64,000 nucleotides of DNA from Minisyncoccota bacterium. GTDB lineage: Bacteria; Patescibacteriota; Minisyncoccia; Phycocordibacterales; UBA9973. Shown one piece after another: positions 6,261 to 21,535 of this stretch. The notes under the pieces were generated by a model. That model was not told the DNA's origin, made no database searches, and was given only the letters and a program-made list of their open reading frames with translations. Numbering within the stretch: position 1 is the stretch's first letter; each line of letters starts with the position of its first letter. Location: the NCBI GenBank assembly GCA_021734995.1, contig JAIPHX010000003.1, positions 11,969 to 75,968 of the forward strand, in the 5' to 3' direction. The position numbers and the translations under genes are program-made.

Positions 6261-6332
6261 TGCGAGATCGTCTAATGGTAGGACAACGGTTTCTGGAACC
6301 GTCTATCTAGGTTCGAATCCTAGTCTCGCAGC
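6261..6332 (+). tRNA. tRNA-Gln (anticodon CUG)
   Basis: Manually folded cloverleaf. Acceptor tgcgaga/tctcgca, D-stem gtct/ggac, anticodon stem acggt/accgt with loop ttCTGga, T-arm ctagg-ttcgaat-cctag. No encoded CCA. Confidence 0.8.
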
Positions 6333-6401
6333 AGTCTAGTTTTTCGTACCTAGTGACCAAGATGGGTGTTCTGTGTTAATTTTTTAATATAATTCTAACT
6401 T

Positions 6402-9113
6402 ATGAATAAACTGGATAAAGAAATACTAACCATCGATAAGGCCATTTGTAAAAATATCGATAAATACCACGCATCAGAAAGAGGTCTTTTGGCGCAGAAT
6501 ATCCTTTCTCAGCTCAGAAATTTTATAGAACGCGTCGCTCTTAAAGAAGAAACCAACGGACAAGATATTGATTTTAATTTCGAGGATTTAAAAAGAGCTC
6601 CAAATAGACTACAGCCAAATGGGTCACTATGGTTTATTAGAAGGTTCCATAATTTTCTGCAAGGTGTTGCAGGTCACGATACTCAAACCGAAGAAAATTC
6701 TGAGCGCTTGATGTTAAAATATTATGAATATTTACTAAGAGTCAAAGCCTACCTAAAAAATACTCACGGTTTAGATGTTCTAGATAATATTGATAAATTT
6801 CCAATAAATACTGACCCTGCGTTGCAACAGTATTATGAAAAGATAGCTGAAAGAATTGAGCGTCCAACTAAAACAAGAATAATCAATTCTTATAATGGAC
6901 GCTATTACATTCAAAAGATTAAACCATTTTTTGTTAATCACGAAATATACTATGAAGTCACTTTTACAATTGCCAGTGCTCAAGTTAGTAAATTTGATAG
7001 AGTTATTGCTTTTACGAAATTGAATATCCCTGATAATTACGCTGTTAAATTTTCTTTAATTCATGACGACATAGAGGTCTTAAGCAAAAAAATGCCCATA
7101 CAAATTATCGATAAATTTGAAGTTTCTATAAGGCCTTGCGAACTCAACAATTTTGGTCGCATTTTAGGTGAGAATGTAAAGATCGAGACAAAAAATGCAG
7201 AGTATAAAAATCTAATGGGTTTTCTAACAGACACAAAGCTAAGCCTCGTTGAGCTTATTGACCTTCCAGATGATTATTATGATGCTATAAAAACACGAAT
7301 CGTTCAGGGTCTTCAGGTTGTATACTTTTTGCCAATCTTAGACAAAGTGAGGACTCTAGTTAAGAACAATGAAGTTGGCATCAACGTAGTTAGATACTTA
7401 CTCCATTGTTTAAATAATAGAATTATAAAGTTACAGAATAGTTATTATGGCGGGTATAAACTTCGCACAGACTTCAATCTAAATCTTGGATGTAAGCCGT
7501 TCGACACAATGCCCGTTAACTCATCTTTAATAGGACATAATCCCGAAATTTCAACCGTTTTTGAATGTATTGATGCAACAGATCGAGAACACGAACTATT
7601 TGGAAGACTTATAAAAAACAATACAGAGAATAAGGGAAAGCTGTACACACCTCTAACAGGTTTGATCAAGACAAAGAAAGAAATTGAATCTCTTGTTAAG
7701 ACTTATAATAGTAAGTTGTATCTCCCCAAACATAACCATCGCAAGCTGGAGAATTTTAATGATTTTATTTATATAAATGGATATGAAAAAGATACTTTAG
7801 ACATTATCAAAAAATTTAAAGAATTGACCTTAAATGGTATAAGCAACTACTCAAATTCGGTGGACTCATGGTTAAGATCATCTGCGTACAAAATTGATTG
7901 CAAGGATAAAGAAAAAATACTCAGACAGTTATTTGCTGATTCAGAGATAGCCTTGGTATATGGGGCAGCGGGAACAGGAAAATCGACATTAATAAATCAC
8001 ATATCAAACTTTTTCAACGATAATAAAAAGCTCTATTTAGCAAATACCTATCCAGCACTTGATAATTTAAAGAGAAAAGTAACCGCAGCAAATTGCAAGT
8101 TTCAGACAATCGCAAAGTTTCTATCACCTAAAAACACTGAAGTCGACTTTGATATTCTCATCATTGATGAGTGTAGTACTGTCAGCAACATACATATGGT
8201 TAATGTCTTGAGTAAGGTAAAATTCAAATCATTGATACTAGTTGGCGATGTGTTTCAAATTGAACCTATCATATTTGGAAACTGGTTTAATATCGCGCGA
8301 TATTTTATACCCAAGACTGCTGTCTCAGAATTAACCGTTCCTTATCGCACTACCAACAAAGAATTGATTGAATTCTGGAATAGGGTCAGAAACTTACAAG
8401 ACAACATTCTTGAAAGTATGACTAGAAACGATTATACCACTGTTTTGAATGAATCAATTTTTAAGAACCTTGAAGATGATGAAATTATTCTTTGTTTAAA
8501 CTATGATGGCCTGTATGGCATCAATAACTTAAACAGGTTTCTTCAGAATAGTAACGAAAACGCACCTGTTGATTGGGATATACAAACCTACAAGACTGGA
8601 GATCCAATACTTTTTAATGAAACCGAAAGATTCGCGCCACTAATATACAATAACCTTAAAGGTAGGATTGTTGACATAAATAAAGCCGAGAAGCAAATTC
8701 AATTTGATATTGAAATTGACAAGGCCATAAACGAACTACAAGCATCTGACTATGATTTTAAGTTAGTTGGAAGTGCTGAAAATGGAAACTCAATCATTAG
8801 ATTCATTGTTAATGAGCGAGGCAACACGGATGAAGATGATGATCCTTTAGATTCCGTAGTTCCATTTCAGGTTGCTTATGCTATTTCTATTCATAAAGCT
8901 CAAGGTCTAGAGTATAATTCAGTAAAGATTGTTATCTCAAGTGAGACTGAAGAAATGATAACTCATAACATTTTCTATACAGCCATAACTAGAGCCAAGG
9001 AGAAACTAAAAATATATTGGACACCTGAAGCAGAGAAAAAAGTTTTGGCTGGTTTTCAAAAACTTGATAGTACTGAAGATGTAGAGATTTTATTTTCAAG
9101 GTTAAGTCCATAG
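6402..9113 (+). CDS. SF1 RecD/Dda-like helicase (AAA_30 + UvrD_C-like) with about 500-aa unknown N-terminal region
   Basis: Walker A ALVYGAAGTGKST, Walker B LIIDECS, and C-terminal motifs VAYAISIHKAQGLEYNSVKIV and IFYTAITRAKEKL are typical of RecD/TraA-like helicases. Confidence 0.7.
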   Translation: MNKLDKEILTIDKAICKNIDKYHASERGLLAQNILSQLRNFIERVALKEETNGQDIDFNFEDLKRAPNRLQPNGSLWFIRRFHNFLQGVAGHDTQTEENSERLMLKYYEYLLRVKAYLKNTHGLDVLDNIDKFPINTDPALQQYYEKIAERIERPTKTRIINSYNGRYYIQKIKPFFVNHEIYYEVTFTIASAQVSKFDRVIAFTKLNIPDNYAVKFSLIHDDIEVLSKKMPIQIIDKFEVSIRPCELNNFGRILGENVKIETKNAEYKNLMGFLTDTKLSLVELIDLPDDYYDAIKTRIVQGLQVVYFLPILDKVRTLVKNNEVGINVVRYLLHCLNNRIIKLQNSYYGGYKLRTDFNLNLGCKPFDTMPVNSSLIGHNPEISTVFECIDATDREHELFGRLIKNNTENKGKLYTPLTGLIKTKKEIESLVKTYNSKLYLPKHNHRKLENFNDFIYINGYEKDTLDIIKKFKELTLNGISNYSNSVDSWLRSSAYKIDCKDKEKILRQLFADSEIALVYGAAGTGKSTLINHISNFFNDNKKLYLANTYPALDNLKRKVTAANCKFQTIAKFLSPKNTEVDFDILIIDECSTVSNIHMVNVLSKVKFKSLILVGDVFQIEPIIFGNWFNIARYFIPKTAVSELTVPYRTTNKELIEFWNRVRNLQDNILESMTRNDYTTVLNESIFKNLEDDEIILCLNYDGLYGINNLNRFLQNSNENAPVDWDIQTYKTGDPILFNETERFAPLIYNNLKGRIVDINKAEKQIQFDIEIDKAINELQASDYDFKLVGSAENGNSIIRFIVNERGNTDEDDDPLDSVVPFQVAYAISIHKAQGLEYNSVKIVISSETEEMITHNIFYTAITRAKEKLKIYWTPEAEKKVLAGFQKLDSTEDVEILFSRLSP

Positions 9114-9121
9114 TAACTAAT

Positions 9122-10387
9122 TTATTCAATTACTACACGCTTATTGATGAGTATCAATTTACTCGTAAACGATTGCATCAAATCTCTCTTTTCTTGAAGA
9201 GTTCCTTCTTTAAGAAGATATTTCATATAGTTTCTAACATCTAGTTTTGTCTTTGCTATTTTTTCGTCATTGGTTAGGTCTAATACTTTATTTCTAAACT
9301 CACTATATCTTTCAATTTCTTTTTCAAGTTTTTCTTTTATTCCAACATTATTTATATCTATCCGGTCAATGATTTCAAGTAGTTGGGAAATTAATTCTTC
9401 TTCGCGAATGTAAGTATTTTTACATTGTTTATCATTAAATTTAGTACAACCATAATAAATATATTTTGCTACACTTCCATTCGCTAGATTTTTATGTTTT
9501 TCATCAGCGGTAACTCCCGATTTACACATCCCACATTTTATTAGCCTAGTGAAAGCAAATTCTTTTTCAATTTTTTTGTCATTCTTTTTGGTGTCCAATC
9601 TTTCTTGAACCCTTTGAAATATTTCCTTACTAACTATTGGATCATGTCTTCCTAAGTACCATTTACCTGATTGTCTAGGATATTCAATCATTCCCATGTA
9701 AAAATTATTTCTTAGAATAACTTGGATATTACTAAGAGTTAAAGGTTTTCCGTTTCTAGTTGTAAATTTTACATCTTCTTTTGCCCATTTATATAATTTT
9801 CTTATACTTAAATTTTCATTTAAAGCTTTTTCAAATAATAAACGTACCACATGAGATCTTAATGGGTCTGGTATCACATGACATTTCATAGTCCTATCTG
9901 GATGATTAAGATATCCAGTAGGGGCGACGCTTGGCCAGAGCCCACTCTCTACTCTTGTTCTTAATCCTCGTTTTACATTTATACTTTTATTATCATTTTC
10001 TAATTTTGCTTGTGATCCAAGAATCATTAATAAAAATTTTTCATTTGGGTTGTTTGTGAATCGCTGACTATAAGTTCTGATTTCAATTAATTTCTTTTGA
10101 TCTAGTAAATCAACTATTGCTCCAAGGTCCCCAGCATTTCTGGCGAGACGATCTGGATGCCACACTAGAATTGCATTAAATTTCCCAATACGAATATCAT
10201 TTAGAAGTTGATTGTATACAGGTCTTTGTCCACAATCTTTTGCTGAGTGTGATTCTTTATATATTTCAACAATATTTAAGTTTTCTCTCTGAGATAAGGT
10301 GAGCATCTCCTTTATCTGAGAATCTATAGATAAAGCTTGTTTTTCCTCTGCCTCGCTCGATTTGCGGGCATATAAGCAGTATTTCAT
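9122..10387 (-). CDS. Large serine recombinase (resolvase/invertase catalytic domain + recombinase domain + zinc ribbon)
   Basis: YARKSSEAEEKQALSIDSQ (catalytic Ser) and LVWHPDRLARN motifs, with a Cys-rich C-terminal region (CGMCKS...YYGCTKF...C). The ORF could start 33 codons upstream at 10486. Confidence 0.75.
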   Translation of the reverse strand: MKYCLYARKSSEAEEKQALSIDSQIKEMLTLSQRENLNIVEIYKESHSAKDCGQRPVYNQLLNDIRIGKFNAILVWHPDRLARNAGDLGAIVDLLDQKKLIEIRTYSQRFTNNPNEKFLLMILGSQAKLENDNKSINVKRGLRTRVESGLWPSVAPTGYLNHPDRTMKCHVIPDPLRSHVVRLLFEKALNENLSIRKLYKWAKEDVKFTTRNGKPLTLSNIQVILRNNFYMGMIEYPRQSGKWYLGRHDPIVSKEIFQRVQERLDTKKNDKKIEKEFAFTRLIKCGMCKSGVTADEKHKNLANGSVAKYIYYGCTKFNDKQCKNTYIREEELISQLLEIIDRIDINNVGIKEKLEKEIERYSEFRNKVLDLTNDEKIAKTKLDVRNYMKYLLKEGTLQEKRDLMQSFTSKLILINKRVVIE

Positions 10388-10546
10388 AGTAATGGCTTCT
10401 GTTAGCTTGGGATTTATTAGGATGTTTGTCGCATATGTTTCCATACACACAACATACCGCGAACGTTTATTAAGTCTAGTAAACACATCGAAATGGAGCA
10501 GAAATTTTATAAAGTCAAATATAAAGATGTGATATAATCAACTTAT

Positions 10547-12160
10547 ATGAAAATCTCTAAAATTGAAGTTGAAAATTTTAAATCTATTGAAAAATATGAT
10601 TTTGACTTAAAAGACATTAATATTTTTATTGGTAAAAATAATCACGGTAAAACAAATCTTTTTGATGCATTAGATTGGTTTGATTCTGGAAAAACAGAAC
10701 CTTCTAATTATAGAAACAATGATAGGGCTTTGCTAATAAAAGTGAGATTACATTTCGTCGGAGCTCAGGTAGCAGTTAATGCACTTGAGGATGGTGCATA
10801 TAAAACAGCAATGATAAATGCCCTAGAAGGAACAGATGAGTTTATTGTTGAAAAAGACAGCGAAAACGATAAAAGAGTTTTGATTGTTAACGGCACTACA
10901 AGACCAAATCCAAGAGGTTTTGATTCTGCTCTAAATTATTTTTTACCAAAAATAATTTATGTAACAACAAAACAGCGTTTGTCTGATATTGCTGGTTATA
11001 AATCAAAATCTCCAATCGCAGAAATGTTAGGAGATGTCCTGAAAGATATGGTTGATAATGAACCAAAATATAAGCAATTTCTCGAACTTTTTGATGATCT
11101 TTTTAATGAGAGTGATTCTGTGTTTAGACAATCAGTGAACAACCTACAAGACAGAGTAGAATTTTATCTCGCAAAACAATTTGATGAAGCAGCTGAGGTT
11201 AAATTTCGAATTGAGAATCCTGCTATCGAAGATATGCTTAAGAAATTTGAAACAGAGGTTGATGACGGAATTAAAACAAAAGCTGAACATAAGGGGGATG
11301 GAATGCAACGAGCAGTAATGCTTGCAATTGTTCAAGCATATGCGGATTTTCGAAAAGAAAAAGGTATCGCTAGAACATTTACTTTTCTTATTGATGAAGC
11401 TGAATTACACTTACACCCAACAGCTCAGAGAGCTTTAAAAAATGCCCTCCGTGAGATTGTGGAAAATGAAGGACAAGTACTTATAAATTCACATTCCCCA
11501 ATCTTTGCAAACGAGCTTTTTACAAATCAAAAGATTTATAAAGTAGAAAAGGAAACAGGAGTTTCTCAAGTTAATGAAATTATCACTGAGCAAGAGCAAT
11601 TAGACTCTATTTACCAACTTCTTGGAGGTAGTCCGCAAGACATTTTATTACCAAGTAATTTTATAATTGTTGAAGGACAATCTGAATTCCATCTATTAAA
11701 AAAGCTCATTGAAAAACTATATTTTGATAACAAAAAATGTTCAGCCATTAAAATACTTTTCGCTCGGGGTGATCATGAAAAACATAAAGATATTTATCAT
11801 TGCATTCATCAATGTTATACTCCATTACTTACAAACGGTATTTATAAAAATAAGGTAGTATTTCTCATGGATAGTACAGATCCATCAAAACAAGCCTCTT
11901 TTGATACCTTCAAGGCAACACATAGTTGGCTTATTGAAGGAGAACAACTACATGTTCTAACTGTTCCAGCTATTGAAATGATTTACCCTGATTCATTTAA
12001 AAAAACAAAACTAGAAGTTGATAAAATGACCAATCCAAAAGAAAAAATAAATATTGCTTTAGGTGTAGCAAATTCAATCAACACCAAACAAGAGCTTCAA
12101 GATAAAATGCCAGCAATTTTTAACATGTTAGAGAAAGCAATAGAATTTGCTTATGAATAA
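10547..12160 (+). CDS. OLD-family nuclease (ABC-type ATPase + C-terminal Toprim), solitary class-1-like
   Basis: Walker A GKNNHGKTN. Walker B/D-loop LIDEAELHLHP. H-loop LINSHSPIF. A Toprim-like IIVEGQSEF glutamate is followed by an MDSTD acidic motif. Confidence 0.65.
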   Translation: MKISKIEVENFKSIEKYDFDLKDINIFIGKNNHGKTNLFDALDWFDSGKTEPSNYRNNDRALLIKVRLHFVGAQVAVNALEDGAYKTAMINALEGTDEFIVEKDSENDKRVLIVNGTTRPNPRGFDSALNYFLPKIIYVTTKQRLSDIAGYKSKSPIAEMLGDVLKDMVDNEPKYKQFLELFDDLFNESDSVFRQSVNNLQDRVEFYLAKQFDEAAEVKFRIENPAIEDMLKKFETEVDDGIKTKAEHKGDGMQRAVMLAIVQAYADFRKEKGIARTFTFLIDEAELHLHPTAQRALKNALREIVENEGQVLINSHSPIFANELFTNQKIYKVEKETGVSQVNEIITEQEQLDSIYQLLGGSPQDILLPSNFIIVEGQSEFHLLKKLIEKLYFDNKKCSAIKILFARGDHEKHKDIYHCIHQCYTPLLTNGIYKNKVVFLMDSTDPSKQASFDTFKATHSWLIEGEQLHVLTVPAIEMIYPDSFKKTKLEVDKMTNPKEKINIALGVANSINTKQELQDKMPAIFNMLEKAIEFAYE

Positions 12161-12202: not shown

Positions 12203-13006
12203 ATGAATGTACTTACATTTTTACCCAAAAAAGATATAGAGAAATTTATAGATAAAGATGCTTACCTTGTTATTGAATATTTATTAAGGAAAGTAGCCTT
12301 TTCTCAACCAGAGGTAAGGAATAAATCTGAACTTTCTGGTATCCAAATAACAAAAGAGTTTTTGGAGGATTGGATAGCTCAAGCATGTAATTTAACAAAA
12401 GTAGGAGCTGGTAATTATCCTATTGATGTATATAGTCAAAATAAGTATGGAATAGATGTTAAATTTTTGACAGCAAAAATAAATAAGAGTGGTGATTATA
12501 CAAATAGCTATTCAAATGAAACTTCACTTAGCCAAAACTTTAAAATTGCCGGATTAGATTTAGATCAAATGTTTGCCAGTAAGAGATACGAAAATATATT
12601 ATCAGCTTGGATAAAAATTCTTGAAACTAAAATAAACATACCTATCAAAGATTTTAAACTGAAAAAAATTTATTATTTTATTTTTATTAGAGCTGGAAAT
12701 AAAGTTTCCTTAGCAATAGCTGATGTTAACAATAAAGAAATAAAAAAACTTACTACAAATAGATCAACAGATTCTTCTGTTTTTGTTCAGAATTTCATTG
12801 AAGATAAATATGGTAATGTAAAAATATATAAAAGTAAAAAAAGAATGGAACTTAGAGTTTTTCCTAAAAAATTAGAAGAGGATAAAAAAATGATCTCTTG
12901 GAATTTTAAAGATTTATATCCAGATATAATTTCACTTAGAGACGTAATTAAACATGAAGAGATAAAAGAGCACACTAAAAAACAGTTCAAAAAATTCTTT
13001 TCTTAG
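12203..13006 (+). CDS. Putative Type II restriction endonuclease (PD-(D/E)xK candidate)
   Basis: Convergent with, and 1 bp from the stop of, the C5-MTase gene. Candidate motif NYPID...GIDVKFLTAK (PD-x12-DVK). No other recognisable domain. Confidence 0.4.
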   Translation: MNVLTFLPKKDIEKFIDKDAYLVIEYLLRKVAFSQPEVRNKSELSGIQITKEFLEDWIAQACNLTKVGAGNYPIDVYSQNKYGIDVKFLTAKINKSGDYTNSYSNETSLSQNFKIAGLDLDQMFASKRYENILSAWIKILETKINIPIKDFKLKKIYYFIFIRAGNKVSLAIADVNNKEIKKLTTNRSTDSSVFVQNFIEDKYGNVKIYKSKKRMELRVFPKKLEEDKKMISWNFKDLYPDIISLRDVIKHEEIKEHTKKQFKKFFS

Positions 13007-13007
13007 A

Positions 13008-14585
13008 TTACTCCATCGCTTTCATCATCTGTTTAGCAACAGCTTCAACAACCGGAACACTAACTGAGTTCCCAAATTGTTTATAAAGTGCTGAATCTGC
13101 TAGATTTGGTAATTTAAAGTTATCAGGAAATCCTTGAATTCTAGCACATTCTCTTGGTGTTAATTTTCTTATCCCTTTTTTATCTTTTATTATCGGCACA
13201 TTGTGTCCACCCATACCCATATTAGCTGTTAGTGTGGGGCAAACACCGCTTTTATTTTCCCTGACATATTGTCTTCTCCATTGATATACCTTTCCTACTT
13301 CTTTTACGTCTTTTTTAAGTTTTTCAAAAAGAGGTTTACCATTATAGTAATATTTCTCAGGAACATTTTTCTCCAATAAATCCGTAATCTTTTTTGTTAA
13401 TTTAACTGGTTGTGGAAATTCAAATTTATCATAATAATCTTTGTTTTTAAACCCGACTATATAGATACGTTCACGATTCTGGGGGACATTACCATACTCC
13501 ATGGTATTTAATACTTTTGCTTTAACATGATAACCCAAGTCGTGTAAGGTTTCTTCGATTACTTTGAAAGTATTGCCTCCATCATGACTTTTTAAATTTT
13601 TTACATTCTCAAGCATAAAACCTTCTGGATTTTTTGCCCTAATAATTTTTGCTATATCAAAGAATAGATTTCCTCTATTTTTTGGATCATCAAATCCTTT
13701 GCGATATCCTGCAATTGAAAATGCCTGACAAGGGAAACCTCCCAAAATGAAATCAAATTCAGGTAAGTCATCAATTCCTAGTTTTCTTATATCTTCAACT
13801 ACAAGTTTTGAGTCTTTGAAGTTAATATCATATGTTTGTTTACATGGAGCATCAAAATCATTTGCAAAGACTGTTTTAAATCCTGCATTTTCAAACCCCA
13901 TTCTTATTCCTCCTATACCAGCAAATAAATCTATTGTTTTAAATCCATGCTTAGTTTTCTTTTGAGACTTCTTCTCTTCTTCCTGTTTTGGGCTACTGAT
14001 TATTTGAACAACCACACCTCTAACCTCAACTTCTTTTCTGTAAAAAGGAAGCATCGATTGATTTCTAGGTTCTAGTCTAAATTTGTTTTTTTCTCTGTAT
14101 AATTTTTTTAATGTTGCTTCATTATCATCAATAATAGCAACAACCGTTTGTCCATTTTCAGCTACTGACTGTTTTTTAATCACCACGATGTCTCCATCAA
14201 ATATTCCTTCTTCAGTCATACTGTCTCCTTGAACCCTGAGAGCATAGTATTCTTTTGGGTTCTTAATACTAGAATTTATTATTGAAATAGTCTCTGTTCT
14301 ATCCTCAATAGCTTCTATTGGCTGTCCAGCGGCGATACTTCCCATTACTGGTATTTCTAAAACTTTAAATGTTTCGATTTTGGGTTCTATACTTCTAGAT
14401 AAATTCTCTGATTTACTTATGTATCCTTTTTCTTTTAATGCGTTTACATGTTCGTGAACAGTAGAGATAGCCTTGAGTTTGAATTTCTTACGTATCTCAT
14501 CATTCGTGGGGGATATGCCATTTTCGGCTATGTATGAGTTAATAAAATCCAATATTAGTTTTTGTTTTTTTGTTAATGATTGCAT
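13008..14585 (-). CDS. LexA-like repressor (HTH + S24 autopeptidase) fused to DNA (cytosine-5)-methyltransferase
   Basis: The N-terminal 200 aa include a winged HTH, cleavage-site-like IAAGQP, the Ser nucleophile GDSM and NGQTVVAIIDDNEATLKKL (LexA Lys region). The C-terminal 325 aa carry MTase motif I DLFAGIGG, motif IV GGFPCQAFS, motif VI ENVKNL, QNRERIYIVGF and motif X GNSVSVPV. The ORF is continuous. Confidence 0.8.
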   Translation of the reverse strand: MQSLTKKQKLILDFINSYIAENGISPTNDEIRKKFKLKAISTVHEHVNALKEKGYISKSENLSRSIEPKIETFKVLEIPVMGSIAAGQPIEAIEDRTETISIINSSIKNPKEYYALRVQGDSMTEEGIFDGDIVVIKKQSVAENGQTVVAIIDDNEATLKKLYREKNKFRLEPRNQSMLPFYRKEVEVRGVVVQIISSPKQEEEKKSQKKTKHGFKTIDLFAGIGGIRMGFENAGFKTVFANDFDAPCKQTYDINFKDSKLVVEDIRKLGIDDLPEFDFILGGFPCQAFSIAGYRKGFDDPKNRGNLFFDIAKIIRAKNPEGFMLENVKNLKSHDGGNTFKVIEETLHDLGYHVKAKVLNTMEYGNVPQNRERIYIVGFKNKDYYDKFEFPQPVKLTKKITDLLEKNVPEKYYYNGKPLFEKLKKDVKEVGKVYQWRRQYVRENKSGVCPTLTANMGMGGHNVPIIKDKKGIRKLTPRECARIQGFPDNFKLPNLADSALYKQFGNSVSVPVVEAVAKQMMKAME

Positions 14586-14671
14586 ATTGATTAAATTATT
14601 TGATTGCGCTACAATTCTATTATAACCGAATATATACCGAAAGTCTAGGCAATATAGGTATAAATAATTAA

Positions 14672-16180
14672 ATGGCTAAACCTAAAATAACAAGAACATA
14701 TGGACCAATACACTTCGAAGATTTAGACCCGAAGCGCTTTGAGGATTTAGCTAGAGAATTAATATATGACTTTAAAGATTGGCAGACAATAGAAGCAACT
14801 GGTAGAGGTGGTAATGATGGGGGTTTTGATGTTAGGGCGTATGAAAAAACTTCTGACATTTCTAATGAAGAAGATAGCGAAGAAAATGAAGAAAAAGTTG
14901 CCCATCCCATGGATGGTAATTTATGGATGATTCAGGGAAAAAGAGAGAAGGAAATTGGTCCTAAAAGAATAAAAGAGATACTAAAAGATGTAGATTCAAA
15001 AAATCCCCCATATGGATATATGTTAGTCGCCTCGGCAAATTTTTCTAAAGATTCTTACGATTCTTTTAGAAAAGAATTAAAAAAGAAAGGAGTAATGGAA
15101 TTTTATCTCTGGGGTAAAGCGGAGTTAGAAGATATGTTACATCTTCCAAAAAATGATCGCATACTATTTACCTTCTTTGGTATTTCGTTGGTAAGCAGAA
15201 GACGGTCTAAATCTGCTGAAGTTAGATCTAAGTTAGTTATTAAGAATAAAATTTATAAAACTCTTGGTGGTAGTTGGGAGTCTTTAAATGACACCTCTGT
15301 TTTAGTCAGAGATATAGATGATATCCATTATCCGTATAAAAATAAATATAAAGATTTTGATAAAAAGCCAAAATGGAAAGAGTATTTTGCTTATGACTAT
15401 CATCCCTTAGGTGTATGGTTCCATACACGCAAATACTACGCTTACGTTGATTTGGCAAAAAAAGAATGGGACTACACTTCTGAAGTAGATTTATTATATC
15501 GACAGGTAAAAAGTGAGAAAGAAAAGGAATTAGAACTTAATAAACGCAATGAAATAAAAACTATATGGGAATTTTTCCCTAATTCTCACAAAGGATATTT
15601 TAACCTAGATGGATTAATAGATTTTGAAAACATACTTTTAGTTGATGATAAGGGAGATAGTTTACACACATTCCCTCACTTCTACGCTGAATATAAAGAT
15701 AAATCTGGACCTTTTGTTGGAGGTTGGGAAAGTTTTACTTTTGAAAACAAAGAGAGAAATATTACTTTAACAAAAGATTGGAAAAGAATAGAGATGTTTC
15801 CAAAAAAGATAAAGAAAATTCCCAATGGTAAAATCCATACAAAGAAAAAAATTATCTTCGATGAAGTTACATTAAAAAATCTAAAGGATTACGACCAAAA
15901 CCTTTTTGCCTTATATGACACAGATGATAAATATAAATTTTTGAATCAAAGAGATATAATCTCGGTGGAAGGTGCAGGAGATGAAGAATATAGTAAAACT
16001 TTTTTACAAATAACTCATAAGTTTAAAGTTAAGGTTAAAGATTATTTAGATCAAAGTAGATTTGGTTGGTTACATAATAGAATAAAAGAACAGCTTGGAA
16101 GGGACTTTGATGAAAACGAAGAAATAAATGTTTATGAATTCAAGAGGGTCTACAAGCGAGAATTTGATGTAAGTGGATAA
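14672..16180 (+). CDS. Mrr-cat-like restriction endonuclease domain protein (N-terminal nuclease + about 340-aa uncharacterised C-terminal region)
   Basis: TGRGGNDGGFDVRA, IQGKR, MLVASANFSKDS and YLWGKAELEDML align with the Mrr_cat consensus (tgrsgDgGiD...VQcK...vTtssFt...LidgeeL). Confidence 0.65.
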   Translation: MAKPKITRTYGPIHFEDLDPKRFEDLARELIYDFKDWQTIEATGRGGNDGGFDVRAYEKTSDISNEEDSEENEEKVAHPMDGNLWMIQGKREKEIGPKRIKEILKDVDSKNPPYGYMLVASANFSKDSYDSFRKELKKKGVMEFYLWGKAELEDMLHLPKNDRILFTFFGISLVSRRRSKSAEVRSKLVIKNKIYKTLGGSWESLNDTSVLVRDIDDIHYPYKNKYKDFDKKPKWKEYFAYDYHPLGVWFHTRKYYAYVDLAKKEWDYTSEVDLLYRQVKSEKEKELELNKRNEIKTIWEFFPNSHKGYFNLDGLIDFENILLVDDKGDSLHTFPHFYAEYKDKSGPFVGGWESFTFENKERNITLTKDWKRIEMFPKKIKKIPNGKIHTKKKIIFDEVTLKNLKDYDQNLFALYDTDDKYKFLNQRDIISVEGAGDEEYSKTFLQITHKFKVKVKDYLDQSRFGWLHNRIKEQLGRDFDENEEINVYEFKRVYKREFDVSG

Positions 16181-16448
16181 CTTAACTACACAATAATTTA
16201 AATTCAAGCTAAGCTTTTAATACCTCTAAAAATGAGGTATAATTTTAGTACAAGTGAATATGAGTAGCCTAAACCATTGAGAAATTGGTGGCATGGTGAA
16301 TAAGTCGCGTTCAACATAAAAACCCTATCATTAGGGCGTTGAACGCGCTGTATGAGGAAACTCATATATGAGACTTCGGTCTCTACCTAGTGGTAGGATT
16401 TTTGCGTCTTATCATAGGATTTATTACTAAAACGCAAAAATAATTTTT

Positions 16449-16919
16449 ATGGAAGAAAAATCAAAGAAAAAGTTTTATAAGAAGTGGTGGTTCTGGGTTA
16501 TTGTTGTAATTGTAGTATTAGCAATTGCTGGTTCATCATCTGATAATAATCAGCCAGTTTCAGTTAAGACTCCAGCGCAAAGTCAATCTGAACAAAAAGT
16601 TGAAGCAATTAAATTGAGTCCGGAAACTTTAAGACAAGCATACAAAGCAAATGAAGTTAATGGTGATAATTTGTACAAAGGAAAACTTGTAGAAATTTCT
16701 GGGACTGTAGACACTATTGGAAAGGATGTAATGAAAGAAGCATATATTACTTTTGAAACACCTGAATCTGTTTCTTTTGATAAGGTTCAATGCATGTTTA
16801 ACCAAACAGAAGAAGCTGGACTAGCTCAGTTAAAGAAAGGGCAAGCTATAAAAGTACAAGGAACAGTATCTGGAGCAACTATAGGAAGTGTAATAGTAAG
16901 AAACTGTAAAATTCAGTAA
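16449..16919 (+). CDS. Membrane-anchored OB-fold (tRNA_anti-like/BOF-type) protein
   Basis: N-terminal TM WWFWVIVVIVVLAIAG. C-terminal KGKLVEISGTV...KVQGTV is an OB-fold-like pattern typical of PF12869. Confidence 0.45.
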   Translation: MEEKSKKKFYKKWWFWVIVVIVVLAIAGSSSDNNQPVSVKTPAQSQSEQKVEAIKLSPETLRQAYKANEVNGDNLYKGKLVEISGTVDTIGKDVMKEAYITFETPESVSFDKVQCMFNQTEEAGLAQLKKGQAIKVQGTVSGATIGSVIVRNCKIQ

Positions 16920-19128: not shown

Positions 19129-19500
19129 ATGAAAAAGAAAGAAATGGCACCAAAAATAAACATTAAAACTTTAACTGAGCGTATAATAGATTTTCGTGAT
19201 GCTAGGGATTGGAAGCAATTTCACAACCCAAAAGATATTGCGTTATCTCTTGTTTTAGAGGCAACTGAAGTGATGGAACATTTTCAATGGAAAAGTAAAG
19301 AAGAAATGGAAAAATATATTGTCACTAATAAAGCTGATATAGCTGAAGAACTTGCAGATGTTCTGTATTGGGTTTTGCTCATGAGCAGTGATTTAAAGAT
19401 TGATGTACTCAAGGCTCTCGATAAGAAAATTTTAAAAAATGAAGGGAAATATCCGGTGCACAAAGCTAAAGGGAAACATACTAAGTATACTAAATTATAA
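19129..19500 (+). CDS. MazG-like nucleotide pyrophosphohydrolase
   Basis: EATEVMEHF...AEELADVLYWVL is the MazG EExxE/D metal-binding pattern. Length 123 aa. Confidence 0.6.
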   Translation: MKKKEMAPKINIKTLTERIIDFRDARDWKQFHNPKDIALSLVLEATEVMEHFQWKSKEEMEKYIVTNKADIAEELADVLYWVLLMSSDLKIDVLKALDKKILKNEGKYPVHKAKGKHTKYTKL

Positions 19501-19501
19501 A

Positions 19502-21535
19502 ATGTCTAATATTGTAACTTTTAAATATAAAAAGGAAAATTTTTATGAAATAAAACAATTTAATTTTGGGAGAAATTGGCCAGTAGTCTATTTAATTGAA
19601 GACAAAAAAGAGATTTATATTGGGCAAACAATTAATGCATATTACAGAAGTAAGCAACATTATGAAAATCCAGACAGAAGAAAACTGAGTGAAGTGCATA
19701 TTATAACAGATGAAGAATTTAATGTTTCTGCCACGTTAGATATTGAGTCTTGGCTCATTCAATATATTTCTGCTGATGGTAAATATATATTACAGAATGG
19801 AAATAGCGGGCTTAAAAATCATAATTATTATGATCGTATAAAATACAAAACCAAATTTGAAATAGCATGGAACGAGTTGAGAAAGATGGGATTAGTTAAA
19901 AATTCTTTAGAAGATTTAAAAAATAGTGATTTGTTTAAATATTCGCCATATAAATCTCTTACAGAAGATCAATTTTTTATTGCAAGAAAGATTTTTAGAG
20001 ATATTAAAAGAAACAAAAACAATACTTTTGTTATAAATGGTAAACCTGGTACAGGTAAAACAATTTTAGCTACATACCTTTTTAAATATTTAAAAGAACA
20101 AGATGAAACAAAAAATATGAAAATTGGTCTTGTTATTCCGATGACTTCATTGCGTACAACTTTAAAAAGAGTTTTTAGTAAAATAAAAGGATTGAAATCA
20201 AATATGGTTATTGGGCCGAACGGTGTTGTTCAAGAACAATATGATCTATTGATAGTCGACGAAGCACATAGATTACAACGAAGGAAAGGTATTATGGGTT
20301 TTGGTGCCTTTGATAATATAAATCGTCGGCTTGATTTAGGAAACAATGGTACACAGCTTGATTGGGTTATGAAATCTTCTAAACATCAAGTTTTCTTTTA
20401 TGATGAAAATCAAAGCATAAAACCTGCTGATATTAGATCTGATGATTTTAAAAATCTTAAAACAAAGAGATATGAATTAAAATCTCAGATGCGAGTGGAA
20501 GCAGGAGAAGAATATATCAAATCTATTGAAGATTTTTTTGATTTAAAAATTCCTCAAAATACAAGTTTTCTAAATTATGATTTAAAAATTTTTGATGAGG
20601 TAAAAGAAATGATTACTTTGATTAAAGAGAAAGACAAAAATTATAAATTATCTCGTGTAGTTGCTGGTTACGCATGGCCATGGCATACAAAGCCAAAAAG
20701 TAAATCAACTAAAAAACATGATATTGAGATAAGTGATTTAAAACTTGTTTGGAATTCTACAGCTCAAGATTGGGTTAATTCCCATAATGCTATAAATGAA
20801 GTTGGTTGTATCCATACTGTGCAAGGTTATGATTTAAATTATGTTGGAGTTATCATTGGACCAGAGTTTTATTATGACCCAATCAAGAAAAAATTTGGAG
20901 TAAATCGTGAACAATATTTTGATGTCAATGGAAGAAATGGTATTACAGATCCGAATGAATTAGAAAGATATATTATTAATATTTACAAAACACTTCTTAC
21001 TAGGGGGATTAAAGGAACTTATATTTATGTTGTAGATGAAAATTTAAGGGATTATTTTAAAAAACAATTTAAACAAAAAGTTTCCGAAACAGGTCTAAAG
21101 GAATTTTATAATACAGAAATGATAACCTCTCCTTTCACAATGGAAATGATTAGAATTCCATTAGTTGGTTCTGCTCCATGCGGAAATCCTTTTCTTGGTG
21201 AAGAAAACATAGAGCAGTATATTGAAGTTGAAAAAAATAAAATTAAACCTGGAACAAAATATTTCATAGTTAAAGCAAATGGAGATTCAATGAATAAAGC
21301 AGGTATTAATGATCAAGATTTAGTACTTTGTCGTTACTCTGAAAAAGGTGAAACGGGTGATAAGGTTATTGCATTACTTGATGGTGAAAATGTTACCATA
21401 AAATATTACGATAAAAAAAATGGGCGTAGAATTTTGTTGCCAAAAAGTACAAATATAACACATCAACCAATTTTCCCTAAAGAAGGTGATATAGTTCAGG
21501 GGATTGTTCAAGAAGTTTTGAATAAAAAATCTTAA
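19502..21535 (+). CDS. Tri-domain protein: GIY-YIG nuclease + DUF2075/Schlafen-like DEAH ATPase + UmuD/LexA-like S24 autopeptidase
   Basis: GIY-YIG: VVYLIEDKKEIYIGQT..R.KQH..E..N. ATPase: Walker A INGKPGTGKT and LLIVDEAHRL. C-terminus: cleavage-site-like APCGNP (UmuD Cys-Gly), GDSM Ser and VTIKYY Lys. The start sits 1 nt after the MazG stop (MSNIVTF); the listed ORF start at 19439 overlaps MazG. Confidence 0.7.
   Translation: MSNIVTFKYKKENFYEIKQFNFGRNWPVVYLIEDKKEIYIGQTINAYYRSKQHYENPDRRKLSEVHIITDEEFNVSATLDIESWLIQYISADGKYILQNGNSGLKNHNYYDRIKYKTKFEIAWNELRKMGLVKNSLEDLKNSDLFKYSPYKSLTEDQFFIARKIFRDIKRNKNNTFVINGKPGTGKTILATYLFKYLKEQDETKNMKIGLVIPMTSLRTTLKRVFSKIKGLKSNMVIGPNGVVQEQYDLLIVDEAHRLQRRKGIMGFGAFDNINRRLDLGNNGTQLDWVMKSSKHQVFFYDENQSIKPADIRSDDFKNLKTKRYELKSQMRVEAGEEYIKSIEDFFDLKIPQNTSFLNYDLKIFDEVKEMITLIKEKDKNYKLSRVVAGYAWPWHTKPKSKSTKKHDIEISDLKLVWNSTAQDWVNSHNAINEVGCIHTVQGYDLNYVGVIIGPEFYYDPIKKKFGVNREQYFDVNGRNGITDPNELERYIINIYKTLLTRGIKGTYIYVVDENLRDYFKKQFKQKVSETGLKEFYNTEMITSPFTMEMIRIPLVGSAPCGNPFLGEENIEQYIEVEKNKIKPGTKYFIVKANGDSMNKAGINDQDLVLCRYSEKGETGDKVIALLDGENVTIKYYDKKNGRRILLPKSTNITHQPIFPKEGDIVQGIVQEVLNKKS

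Follow-up and report, generated by a model that had tools for sequence, protein, structure and literature searches.

A nuclease-first Mrr-like protein family as a candidate class of modification-dependent restriction nucleases

What does an Mrr-type nuclease do when it stands at the front of its protein and is followed by a long region of its own? The question is raised by a gene at positions 14672..16180 (+ strand) of the window, the whole stretch of 64,000 nucleotides analysed here. The gene was a complete ORF with an ATG start, encoding 502 aa plus the stop codon, and the start was supported because homologues were conserved from residue 1. An identical protein was present at NCBI as MCF7834274.1, annotated as 'restriction endonuclease' from Candidatus Pacebacteria. 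An earlier note, made from the sequence alone, had described it as an N-terminal Mrr_cat core with one long C-terminal region, situated beside a restriction-modification (R-M) pair.

The N-terminal nuclease domain

The proposed Mrr_cat domain was confirmed. The Pfam model (PF04471) matched residues 17–134 with E=9.1e-6 and 26.2 bits, only modestly over the gathering cutoff of 21; conservation and fold matches backed the assignment, and PF04471 was precomputed in about half of the listed homologues. Based on the Pfam match, the AF2 fold and Foldseek, the Mrr/MspJI-type PD-(D/E)xK nuclease domain comprised residues ~12–165 (14705..15166, + strand), with a core in the order alpha-beta-beta-beta-alpha-beta (pLDDT 83–92). 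The four motifs quoted in the earlier note were all found: TGRGGNDGGFDV at residue 43, IQGKR at 87, VASANFS at 119, and AELEDML at 150.

Both parts of the signature of the Mrr_cat family, the Glu of the upstream helix (E24) and the D...QxK motif, were present. The predicted catalytic Asp was D53 in 'GFD' (14828..14830, + strand), and the Mrr-type QxK motif was Q88-G89-K90 in 'IQGKR' (14933..14941, + strand). E24, D53, Q88, K90, and R91, which belong to this D…QxK site, were identical in 78/78 intact homologues, so that the loss of conservation that the earlier note had named as counting against its proposal was not observed. The best full-length Foldseek matches in PDB were MspJI (E=3e-3), the SPARDA nuclease subunit, Avs4, and EcoT38I. 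MspJI chains took the top four places, with E values of 3-7e-3 and a TM score of only ~0.2. These matches belonged to the N-terminal domain, since they were lost when the C-terminal region alone was searched. Taken together, sequence and model predict an intact Mrr/MspJI-type PD-QxK DNA nuclease.

An acidic disordered insertion, KTSDISNEEDSEENEEKVAH (residues 59–78; 14846..14905, + strand; pLDDT <50 at 64–74), separated the D strand from the QxK strand. It varied in sequence among the homologues and stayed acidic: D+E made up 40% of it in this protein and 32% on average in the 78 homologues. A role for this insertion, for example in autoinhibition or DNA mimicry, is speculation.

Neither Mrr_N nor any other winged-helix domain was matched in the protein (Pfam, AF2 model), and the nuclease began at about residue 12. 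The order is therefore reversed relative to Mrr, as had been proposed: the nuclease comes first, and then a long C-terminal region that carries no database annotation. The type IV enzyme Mrr of E. coli shares with this protein the Mrr_cat domain with D...QxK and the solitary gene, but its nuclease is C-terminal, after a winged-helix Mrr_N domain; the protein described here carries the nuclease at its N-terminus and ends in other modules.

The C-terminal modules C1 and C2

The nuclease was joined to the remainder of the protein by an Arg-rich flexible linker at residues 166–179 (15167..15208, + strand), with pLDDT <50 at 165–178, 21% Arg, and a pI of 12. No model covering residues ~170–502 was found in the Pfam, NCBIfam, PADLOC, PHROGs or PDB-sequence searches. 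The HMM search of the protein against PADLOC-DB v2.0 gave 0 families at E<=0.1, and Pfam, PADLOC, and other profile searches gave no sign of an NTPase, an oligomerisation domain or a signalling domain. The C-terminal region had been called lysine-rich, which held only mildly: lysine made up 14.2%, compared with ~10% in the other ORFs of this AT-rich window. It had also been taken for one single region, and that did not hold. There were two modules, here called C1 and C2, and the truly unmatched part was the central ~205 aa.

The central domain C1 (residues ~180–385; 15209..15826, + strand) was delimited by conservation among homologues and was modelled with a pLDDT of ~90. Its predicted elements included two long helices together with some nine beta-strands; the domain was basic (pI 8.9) and occurred in both the long and the short forms of the family. 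K191, R213, Y220, P221, W235, G247, D267, D325, G328, D329, P335, H336, and F376 were conserved across the two forms. No Pfam relatives of C1 were found across the 22 members searched, and the PDB sequence search was also without a match. When the C-terminal region was searched by Foldseek in PDB or BFVD, no match covered over about one third of it. A resemblance of the motif 'KGD...PH.Y.D' in C1 to the RNase T1 family was rejected, as it was not significant (E=2.7) and Foldseek gave no RNase fold in PDB or BFVD.

The second module, C2 (residues ~386–502; 15827..16177, + strand), existed only in the long form and was missing in 19 short-form homologues. Its modelled elements followed the order beta-alpha-beta-beta-beta-alpha-alpha-beta; E489 was invariant and D428 nearly so. 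With the model of the C-terminal region only, the top 18 Foldseek matches in PDB were all ASCH/PUA-like (3s9x, 5gus, 3iuw, 1t62, 6kir, 2kku), with probability up to 0.99 and E >=0.016, and those in BFVD were ASCH, DUF3850, and ASC-1 proteins with probability up to 1.0; no fold match reached E<=0.001. As the Foldseek output came without alignment coordinates, the ASCH-like fold was assigned to C2 and not to C1 based on the topology and on hhalign. In the latter, C2 aligned with YqfB over 46 columns in register with a probability of 10–14% and E=0.002–0.003, the template profile being of very low diversity, and the C1 control gave a probability of 0.4%. The profile was built from YqfB orthologues at 83–99% identity only and was barely better than a single sequence. 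ASCH (PF04266) was not found as a significant match (one of 22 members, E=1.1), and the PDB sequence search gave no match. None of the top 50 Foldseek matches of the C-terminal region in PDB and BFVD was SRA, MspJI, AspBHI or UHRF1, and neither Foldseek nor Pfam gave HhH or EndoIII matches for this beta-rich region.

In comparison with known ASCH proteins (YqfB, ZmASCH, and the ASCH domain of TRIP4), the last ~115 residues had a similar fold with the same order of secondary structures, and the 'GD-V-l-x-V' motif and that of the long central strand aligned in register. In contrast, there was no significant sequence-profile match, and the catalytic residues of YqfB, an N4-acetylcytidine amidohydrolase, were not evidently conserved. 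YqfB-type ASCH proteins are also small stand-alone enzymes, whereas C2 is part of a nuclease. The models thus give weak but consistent support for an ASCH/PUA-like fold of C2. The suggestion of the earlier note that the C-terminal region senses modified DNA gained some support from here, since the last ~115 residues model as a barrel of a superfamily that contains modified-base readers. That note had also considered that the region might prove to be a known reader in permuted order from a well-studied family; the terminal module is indeed PUA-like, but the family is not well-studied and the middle domain is unmatched.

Distribution and neighbourhood of the family

The protein was not an isolated oddity. 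More than 1,058 homologues were found in many bacterial phyla, with 52–60% identity over 98–100% of the length and the generic label 'restriction endonuclease'. Their spread was patchy, with 43–60% identity between unrelated phyla. Searching one genome per species with two peptide patterns, which set a lower bound, gave at least 89 confirmed matches in 185,579 species; by this census the gene is absent from most genomes. Column identity was lower on the sensor side (21–55%) than on the nuclease side (73–86%), as expected for a recognition module in an arms race. A phmmer search with the C-terminal region returned 379 representatives. The full-length matches listed all began at about residue 170 and the others were fragments; the region was not found on another N-terminal domain among the matches listed. 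Some plasmid matches spanned the N-terminal domain only. These were not separate proteins, they were genes cut by IS elements, and such elements have destroyed some copies of the family. As far as these sequences indicate, the nuclease is permanently fused to C1 and, in the long form, also to C2. The literature search found no paper on the nuclease-first Mrr/C1/C2 family, and no phage-defence phenotype for it was reported in the literature searched.

Upstream, the gene shared a divergent intergenic region of 86 bp (14586..14671) with a gene for a LexA-fused C5 methyltransferase. This region contained the inverted repeat ATATATACC-N18-GGTATAAAT, and its promoter-like matches were not commoner than in shuffled sequence. 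Downstream, a terminator-like hairpin lay 40 nt past the stop codon (16220..16240, + strand; a consensus match only), and six terminator-like sites were counted in the region, where shuffled sequence gave 1.0 on average. The hairpin suggests that the gene may form a monocistronic unit. A search for a second copy of the tRNA-Gln 3′ end, which would mark the island border, found none.

The defence genes in the window included Old, PDC-S53, the R-M pair, and a Nhi-like helicase. Elsewhere, CBASS, HEPN, and PD-Lambda-2-like genes were found in locus L001, and GajB-like, type I, and type IIG genes at other loci. About half of the immediate neighbours were not recognisably defence genes, and no defence genes were seen in locus L003. 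The small downstream genes of L001, L003, and L005 were unrelated and gave sub-threshold HEPN hints only. When 720 neighbours from 82 loci were clustered, no conserved partner gene emerged; the biggest clusters were serine recombinases in seven loci and Dcm in five. In a Pfam/PADLOC census of 146 flanking proteins, no Pfam family occurred in more than four. With no conserved neighbour in the 82 loci, the protein is likely a solitary nuclease that has no cognate methyltransferase.

The adjacency to the R-M pair, to which the earlier note had drawn attention, was thus not borne out as a functional link. That the gene encodes a type II enzyme cognate to the LexA-fused C5 methyltransferase beside it, or to nearby methyltransferases generally, is very improbable. 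The divergent arrangement over the 86-bp spacer would fit such a pairing, and a C5 methyltransferase with Vsr was located within 4 kb in 5/82 loci. However, the other 77 loci had no such methyltransferase, and where methyltransferases were found they had unrelated restriction enzymes of their own (BsaWI-like, ThaI or EcoRII). The methyltransferase of the window lay tail-to-tail with an ORF of 267 aa that had a PID...GIDVK motif. The methyltransferases were only 24–39% identical to one another, compared with 43–52% for the nuclease-first proteins. Rarely nearby, diverged, and provided with their own enzymes, they leave the pairing largely refuted.

Possible functions of the nuclease-first proteins

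Among characterized enzymes, the MspJI family (MspJI, AspBHI, and LpnPI) is a close comparison. The nuclease is of PD-QxK type in both, MspJI is the best full-length fold match, and both combine a nuclease with a beta-rich PUA-like reader, here a predicted one, and stand alone, having no methyltransferase. The reader of MspJI is N-terminal and SRA-like, whereas here the order is reversed, the C-terminal region has no SRA-like match, and only the nuclease-first protein has an extra domain of 205 aa with no recognised fold. A layout with the nuclease first and the sensor last is already known in other modification-dependent enzymes. PvuRts1I and AbaSI have it in a single gene that comes with no methyltransferase; PvuRts1I consists of a Vsr-like nuclease and an SRA-like reader, whereas the nuclease here is Mrr-type and is followed by C1 and the ASCH-like module. 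The END nucleases likewise have an N-terminal nuclease and a C-terminal modification-recognising domain in one gene without a methyltransferase, in their case a PLD or NucS-like nuclease and an all-helical inactive EndoIII (PMC12191111). Their sensor is an inactive EndoIII/Ogg1-like helical domain, whereas the C-terminal region here is beta-rich and has no such match. PUA-superfamily domains are established modified-base sensors in fusions with nucleases, including Mrr-like PD-QxK domains (PMC6765204, PMC7641849), and a PUA barrel with a nuclease as predicted or proven sensor, as here, occurs in the EVE-HNH enzyme VcaM4I and the SRA-HNH enzyme TagI. Lutz et al. (2019) also mentioned PUA-superfamily fusions to Mrr-like PD-QxK domains; in the characterised fusions the readers are EVE, SRA or YTH and the nucleases mostly HNH, and an Mrr-type nuclease with a novel domain and an ASCH-like reader was not described there.

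Our preferred explanation, to which we give roughly an even chance, is that the protein is a stand-alone, horizontally mobile, type IV-like modification-dependent restriction nuclease. C1, a basic domain in which residues of the types R, Y, W, D, and H are invariant, would be the main target-recognising or regulating module, and C2 would be an accessory reader of modified bases. Binding of C1/C2 to foreign DNA with a non-host modification would license the N-terminal nuclease to cut, which it would probably do as an oligomer like MspJI. Without the mark, host DNA would be spared, which would explain why a protective methyltransferase is not needed. This explanation is favoured by the conserved catalytic site, the Mrr_cat match, the MspJI/SPARDA/Avs4/EcoT38I folds, and the PUA-like C2, and also by the solitary gene, its frequent defence or mobile surroundings, the patchy spread, and the copies destroyed by IS elements. 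Against it, C2 is the only reader-like module and is dispensable, since the short form lacks it, and the ligands of characterised ASCH domains are mostly RNA or nucleosides, not modified DNA. General targeting of m5C would be awkward because m5C methyltransferases adjoin the gene in five to six loci. The weak ASCH support, the missing PADLOC model, and the non-defence neighbours also weigh on this explanation.

Three other explanations were considered. The C-terminal region might sense a cue of infection such as a phage protein, an RNA, or a nucleoside or nucleotide, and then free a non-specific nuclease on all DNA of the cell, as in abortive infection. We regard this as possible, though on the unlikely side. 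The structural neighbours of the N-terminal domain include the nuclease modules of Avs4 and SPARDA, which are Mrr-like effectors, the characterised ASCH proteins such as YqfB bind nucleosides or RNA, autoinhibition would fit the acidic disordered loop and the flexible linker, and the single-gene cassette sits in defence islands. On the other hand, the protein lacks detectable NTPase, oligomerisation, and signalling domains, its closest overall fold match is the modification-dependent MspJI, and no signal-generating partner was conserved across the 82 loci. ASCH/PUA domains classically bind RNA (PMC7641849), which would suit a nuclease whose ASCH-like module and C1 bind modified RNA such as tRNA or rRNA while the PD-(D/E)xK domain cleaves RNA or RNA-DNA hybrids. 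The faint likeness between the RNase T1 family and the motif in C1 points the same way, but that match was not significant and had no counterpart among the folds. To our knowledge, moreover, Mrr-type PD-QxK domains are DNA nucleases in every characterised case, and an RNA target is improbable. A housekeeping or repair nuclease, or one that serves the maintenance of a mobile element and not defence, seems quite improbable: many of the neighbours serve ordinary metabolism or transport and some loci such as L003 have no defence genes, but the spread is sporadic with high identity between phyla, recombinases and IS elements are associated with the gene, some copies are inactivated by IS elements, and most genomes appear to lack it.

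A separate question concerns C1 itself. These ~205 aa may represent a new or highly diverged fold, be it a sensor class for modification or damage that is so far unknown, or a second catalytic centre built on D267, D325-x-K-G-D329, and H336. The suggestion follows from the invariant polar residues, the confinement of C1 to this family, and its lack of a PDB or BFVD neighbour; we hold it only tentatively and consider it rather unlikely. If it were correct, single-protein immunity would gain a new mechanistic class in this family, which would then be more than a further PUA-nuclease fusion.

If the proteins are modification-dependent nucleases, as we prefer, they would offer a novel kind of reader, C1 alone or together with the ASCH-like barrel, for mapping or cutting modified DNA, and a function would be available for more than 1,000 genes now labelled 'restriction endonuclease' or 'hypothetical'. 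The natural long and short forms are a ready-made comparison for what the ASCH-like module contributes, and genes of the family also occur in culturable Acidovorax, Mucilaginibacter, Bradyrhizobium, Ruegeria, Azospira, and Bordetella. In the small genomes of CPR/Patescibacteria, this gene is among the few recognisable defence genes.

An N-terminal nuclease domain

The gene at 14672..16180 (+ strand, ATG start) encodes a protein of 502 aa, and the identical NCBI entry is named 'restriction endonuclease [Candidatus Pacebacteria bacterium]'. The earlier note, made from the sequence alone, placed an Mrr_cat core at its N-terminus. Pfam bore this out, as Mrr_cat (PF04471) matched residues 17–134 (E = 9.1e-6) with 26.2 bits, above the gathering cutoff of 21 bits. 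The four quoted motifs were found at residues 43, 87, 119, and 150. Conservation of the Mrr_cat residues, on which the claim had been made to depend, was complete: none of the 78 intact homologues differed at E24, D53, Q88, K90, or R91. The active site of this domain is intact and under strict conservation.

The AlphaFold2 model of the full protein, built with a 45-sequence alignment, had a pLDDT of 83.5. The N-domain (residues ~12–165) formed a nuclease core in the order alpha-beta-beta-beta-alpha-beta, with a D...QxK pattern, the Mrr/MspJI variant of PD-(D/E)xK. A Foldseek search of the PDB with the full-length model gave no match at E ≤ 0.001; the best were MspJI (3e-3), the SPARDA nuclease subunit, Avs4, and EcoT38I, and these belonged to the N-domain because they were gone when the C-region was searched alone. 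A disordered insertion (residues 59–78; 14846–14905) separated the D strand from the QxK strand; it varied across the family in sequence and length (7–26) and was always acidic (mean 32% D+E). This loop may serve in autoinhibition or as a DNA mimic. An Arg-rich, flexible linker (residues 166–179) followed the N-domain.

The C-terminal modules

None of the models in Pfam, NCBIfam, PADLOC, and PHROGs covered the C-region (residues ~170–502), which had been described as uncharacterised. It had also been called lysine-rich; it does contain 14.2% K, which is only a mild excess over the ~10% of other ORFs in this AT-rich window (~31% GC). Modelled alone by AlphaFold2, it reached a pLDDT of 88.3 and a pTM of 0.83, and comprised two modules, C1 (~180–385) and C2 (~386–502).

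C1 was common to the long (~495 aa, 59 loci) and short (~395 aa, 19 loci) forms of the protein. It was basic (pI 8.9), with two long helices and about nine strands, and its conserved residues were K191, R213, Y220, P221, W235, G247, D267, D325, G328, D329, P335, H336, and F376. No Pfam or PDB sequence match was obtained, and no Foldseek match in the PDB or BFVD covered it. Residues ~324–345 (nt ~15641–15706) carried the motif KGD-x5-PH-x-Y-x-D-F. This motif aligned with 'SGD...YPHEYHDYEGF', the active-site region of RNase Ms, a member of the RNase T1 family, at a non-significant E of 2.7; fold searches gave this likeness no support. C1 might instead represent a sensor fold not seen before, or a second centre of catalysis, but this is rather doubtful.

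C2 was found in the long form only, and the short form stopped near long-form residue 385. Its modelled order was beta-alpha-beta-beta-beta-alpha-alpha-beta. The top 18 PDB matches of the C-region model were all ASCH/PUA-like proteins, including 3s9x, 5gus/5y6b/5guq, 3iuw, 1t62, 6kir, 2kku, and the PUA-like domain of ATP sulfurylase (probability up to 0.99, target-normalised TM 0.36–0.62, E of 0.016 or higher), and each match spanned about 100–130 columns, ~1/3 of the query. BFVD, an independent library, agreed, returning ASCH-domain, DUF3850, and 'activating signal cointegrator' proteins. The sequence evidence for an ASCH identity was weak: Pfam ASCH matched one of 22 family members (E = 1.1), and hhalign of the C2 profile with YqfB (sequence 100% identical to PDB 1TE7) covered 46 columns in the expected register, pairing RDIISV with GDVLRV and FLQITHKFKV with CTIEVTATSTV, at a probability of only 10–14%, against 0.4% for C1 as a control.

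Distribution and genomic neighbourhood

More than 1,058 homologues were found at 52–60% identity and 98–100% length coverage. When each species was represented by a single genome, 89 relatives were confirmed. They occurred in Patescibacteria, Desulfobacterota-like lineages, Bacteroidota, Cyanobacteriota, Acidobacteriota, Actinomycetota, and Proteobacteria, with cultured genera including Acidovorax, Mucilaginibacter, Bradyrhizobium, Hydrogenophaga, Ruegeria, Azospira, and Bordetella. The gene was present on two viral contigs and on only 3 of 72,556 plasmids, and was not found in deposited phage genomes. The short-form subfamily (L065–L083, L085–L087), 34–39% identical to the protein studied here and without the ASCH-like terminal module, came mainly from Beta- and Gammaproteobacteria (Azospira, Bordetella, Massilia, Thiobacillus), plus the two viral contigs. 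An exhaustive phmmer search of residues 171–502 against 1.84 billion cluster representatives gave only 379 matches; among the full-length proteins listed, the match always began at ~residue 170, which indicated that the C-region never recombined with another effector.

Truncated copies recurred. Those on plasmids of Deinococcus sp. NW-56 (L088, 3995–4504) and D. gobiensis (P2; L089, 4001–4513) kept the N-domain only, and their breaks were abutted by IS5, IS3, and IS701 transposases. Others were L062, L064, L069, and L084, with a DDE transposase 262 bp upstream in L069. Such repeated loss would fit a gene that is costly or toxic.

When the 720 ORFs lying up to 4 kb from the gene in 82 loci were clustered, no conserved partner emerged. 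The largest clusters were serine recombinases (7 loci), C5 methyltransferases (5), and Vsr (5), and the commonest Pfam family among 146 immediate flanking proteins occurred at most four times. PADLOC matches among flanking proteins included GajB-like helicases, components of type IIG and type I R-M systems, PDC-S02, and PD-Lambda-2_B. In a Deltaproteobacteria MAG (L001/L002), the homologue (9989–11497) lay downstream of an HTH-Peptidase_M78 protein resembling PD-Lambda-2_B and immediately 5′ of a CBASS pair, CD-NTase and a Cap15-like effector. Horizontal transfer has left the family sporadically distributed, often among defence or mobile genes.

In the window, the cluster containing the gene started just past tRNA-Gln (6261–6332), with a full-length PDC-S53 helicase protein (6402–9113; PADLOC E = 0), a large serine recombinase (9122–10486, − strand), and an Old-family ATPase-TOPRIM nuclease (10547–12160). 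The stretch 6261–12160 resembles a defence island placed beside a tRNA gene; GC fell to 0.26–0.33 from about 9 to 23 kb, and no att-like repeat of the tRNA-Gln end was found. A 267-aa hypothetical protein without family match (12203–13006, + strand) was encoded tail-to-tail, 2 nt apart, with a 525-aa fusion (13008–14585, − strand) of a complete LexA (HTH and S24 autopeptidase; TIGR00498, 3e-51) and a C5 cytosine methyltransferase (PF00145, 7e-96). The exact fusion sequence was absent from a collection of 15 billion proteins. It could be a DNA-damage-/RecA-responsive methyltransferase or a self-regulating R-M controller, and the 267-aa protein, which carries 'PIDVYSQNKYGIDVK', a PD...DxK-like motif (PID...GIDVK), is likely its cognate type II restriction enzyme. 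The nuclease gene has its own 5′ intergenic region and a terminator-like hairpin past the stop codon. The next gene (16449–16919, + strand), a membrane-anchored putative lipoprotein with a tRNA_anti-like OB-fold (PF12869, 5e-28), was not conserved beside homologues elsewhere. Further on, a 698-aa protein (19439–21535, + strand) joined a Schlafen-group-3 helicase (1e-69; Nhi/AbiO-like in PADLOC) to an S24 LexA-like peptidase at the C-terminus (2e-18), and also matched GIY-YIG weakly. As the island's second S24-peptidase fusion, it hints that control of the defence genes is SOS/RecA*-linked.

Probable mode of action

The observation in the earlier note was confirmed and its interpretation partly supported: the feature is real and its C-region uncharacterised, and the LexA-methyltransferase and 267-aa ORF do adjoin it as an apparent R-M pair, but the protein is not their partner. 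This reading was rejected because 77 of 82 loci lacked such a methyltransferase, and those present brought their own restriction enzymes of different families, BsaWI-like (L039), ThaI (L060), and EcoRII (L054). The gene recurs beside differing m5C R-M-Vsr modules, whose methyltransferases shared only 24–39% identity, against 43–52% among the nucleases. A cognate type II enzyme is the least credible explanation. Neither a partner gene nor a methyltransferase is conserved with the nuclease, whose fusion to C1 is permanent and to C2 optional.

Here, a type IV-like modification-dependent restriction nuclease was considered an evenly balanced proposal: C1, with or without C2, would recognise a non-host feature of DNA, and this recognition would license the N-terminal nuclease. 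We favoured this because a solitary nuclease has to avoid host DNA, because the modified-base readers of such enzymes are, as standard, barrels of the PUA superfamily, and because the sensor half is far less conserved than the nuclease half. Such readers include fusions to Mrr-like PD-QxK domains (PMC6765204). An abortive nuclease triggered by a ligand or a protein is a distinctly less probable account; activity directed at RNA is improbable, and a role outside defence slightly more so.

The modification-dependent nuclease would probably work like MspJI, Mrr, PvuRts1I, or END-type enzymes, but it is not a member of these families. The Mrr_N winged helix of Mrr and an SRA-like domain were not found in it, and the iEndoIII domain of END nucleases (PMC12191111) was absent. 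PADLOC has no model for the family, and literature searches found no description of it. The nuclease-first order by itself has precedent. What is new is that an Mrr-type nuclease is joined to a domain of 205 aa specific to the family and to an ASCH-like barrel, and that a wholly uncharacterised family has such size and breadth.
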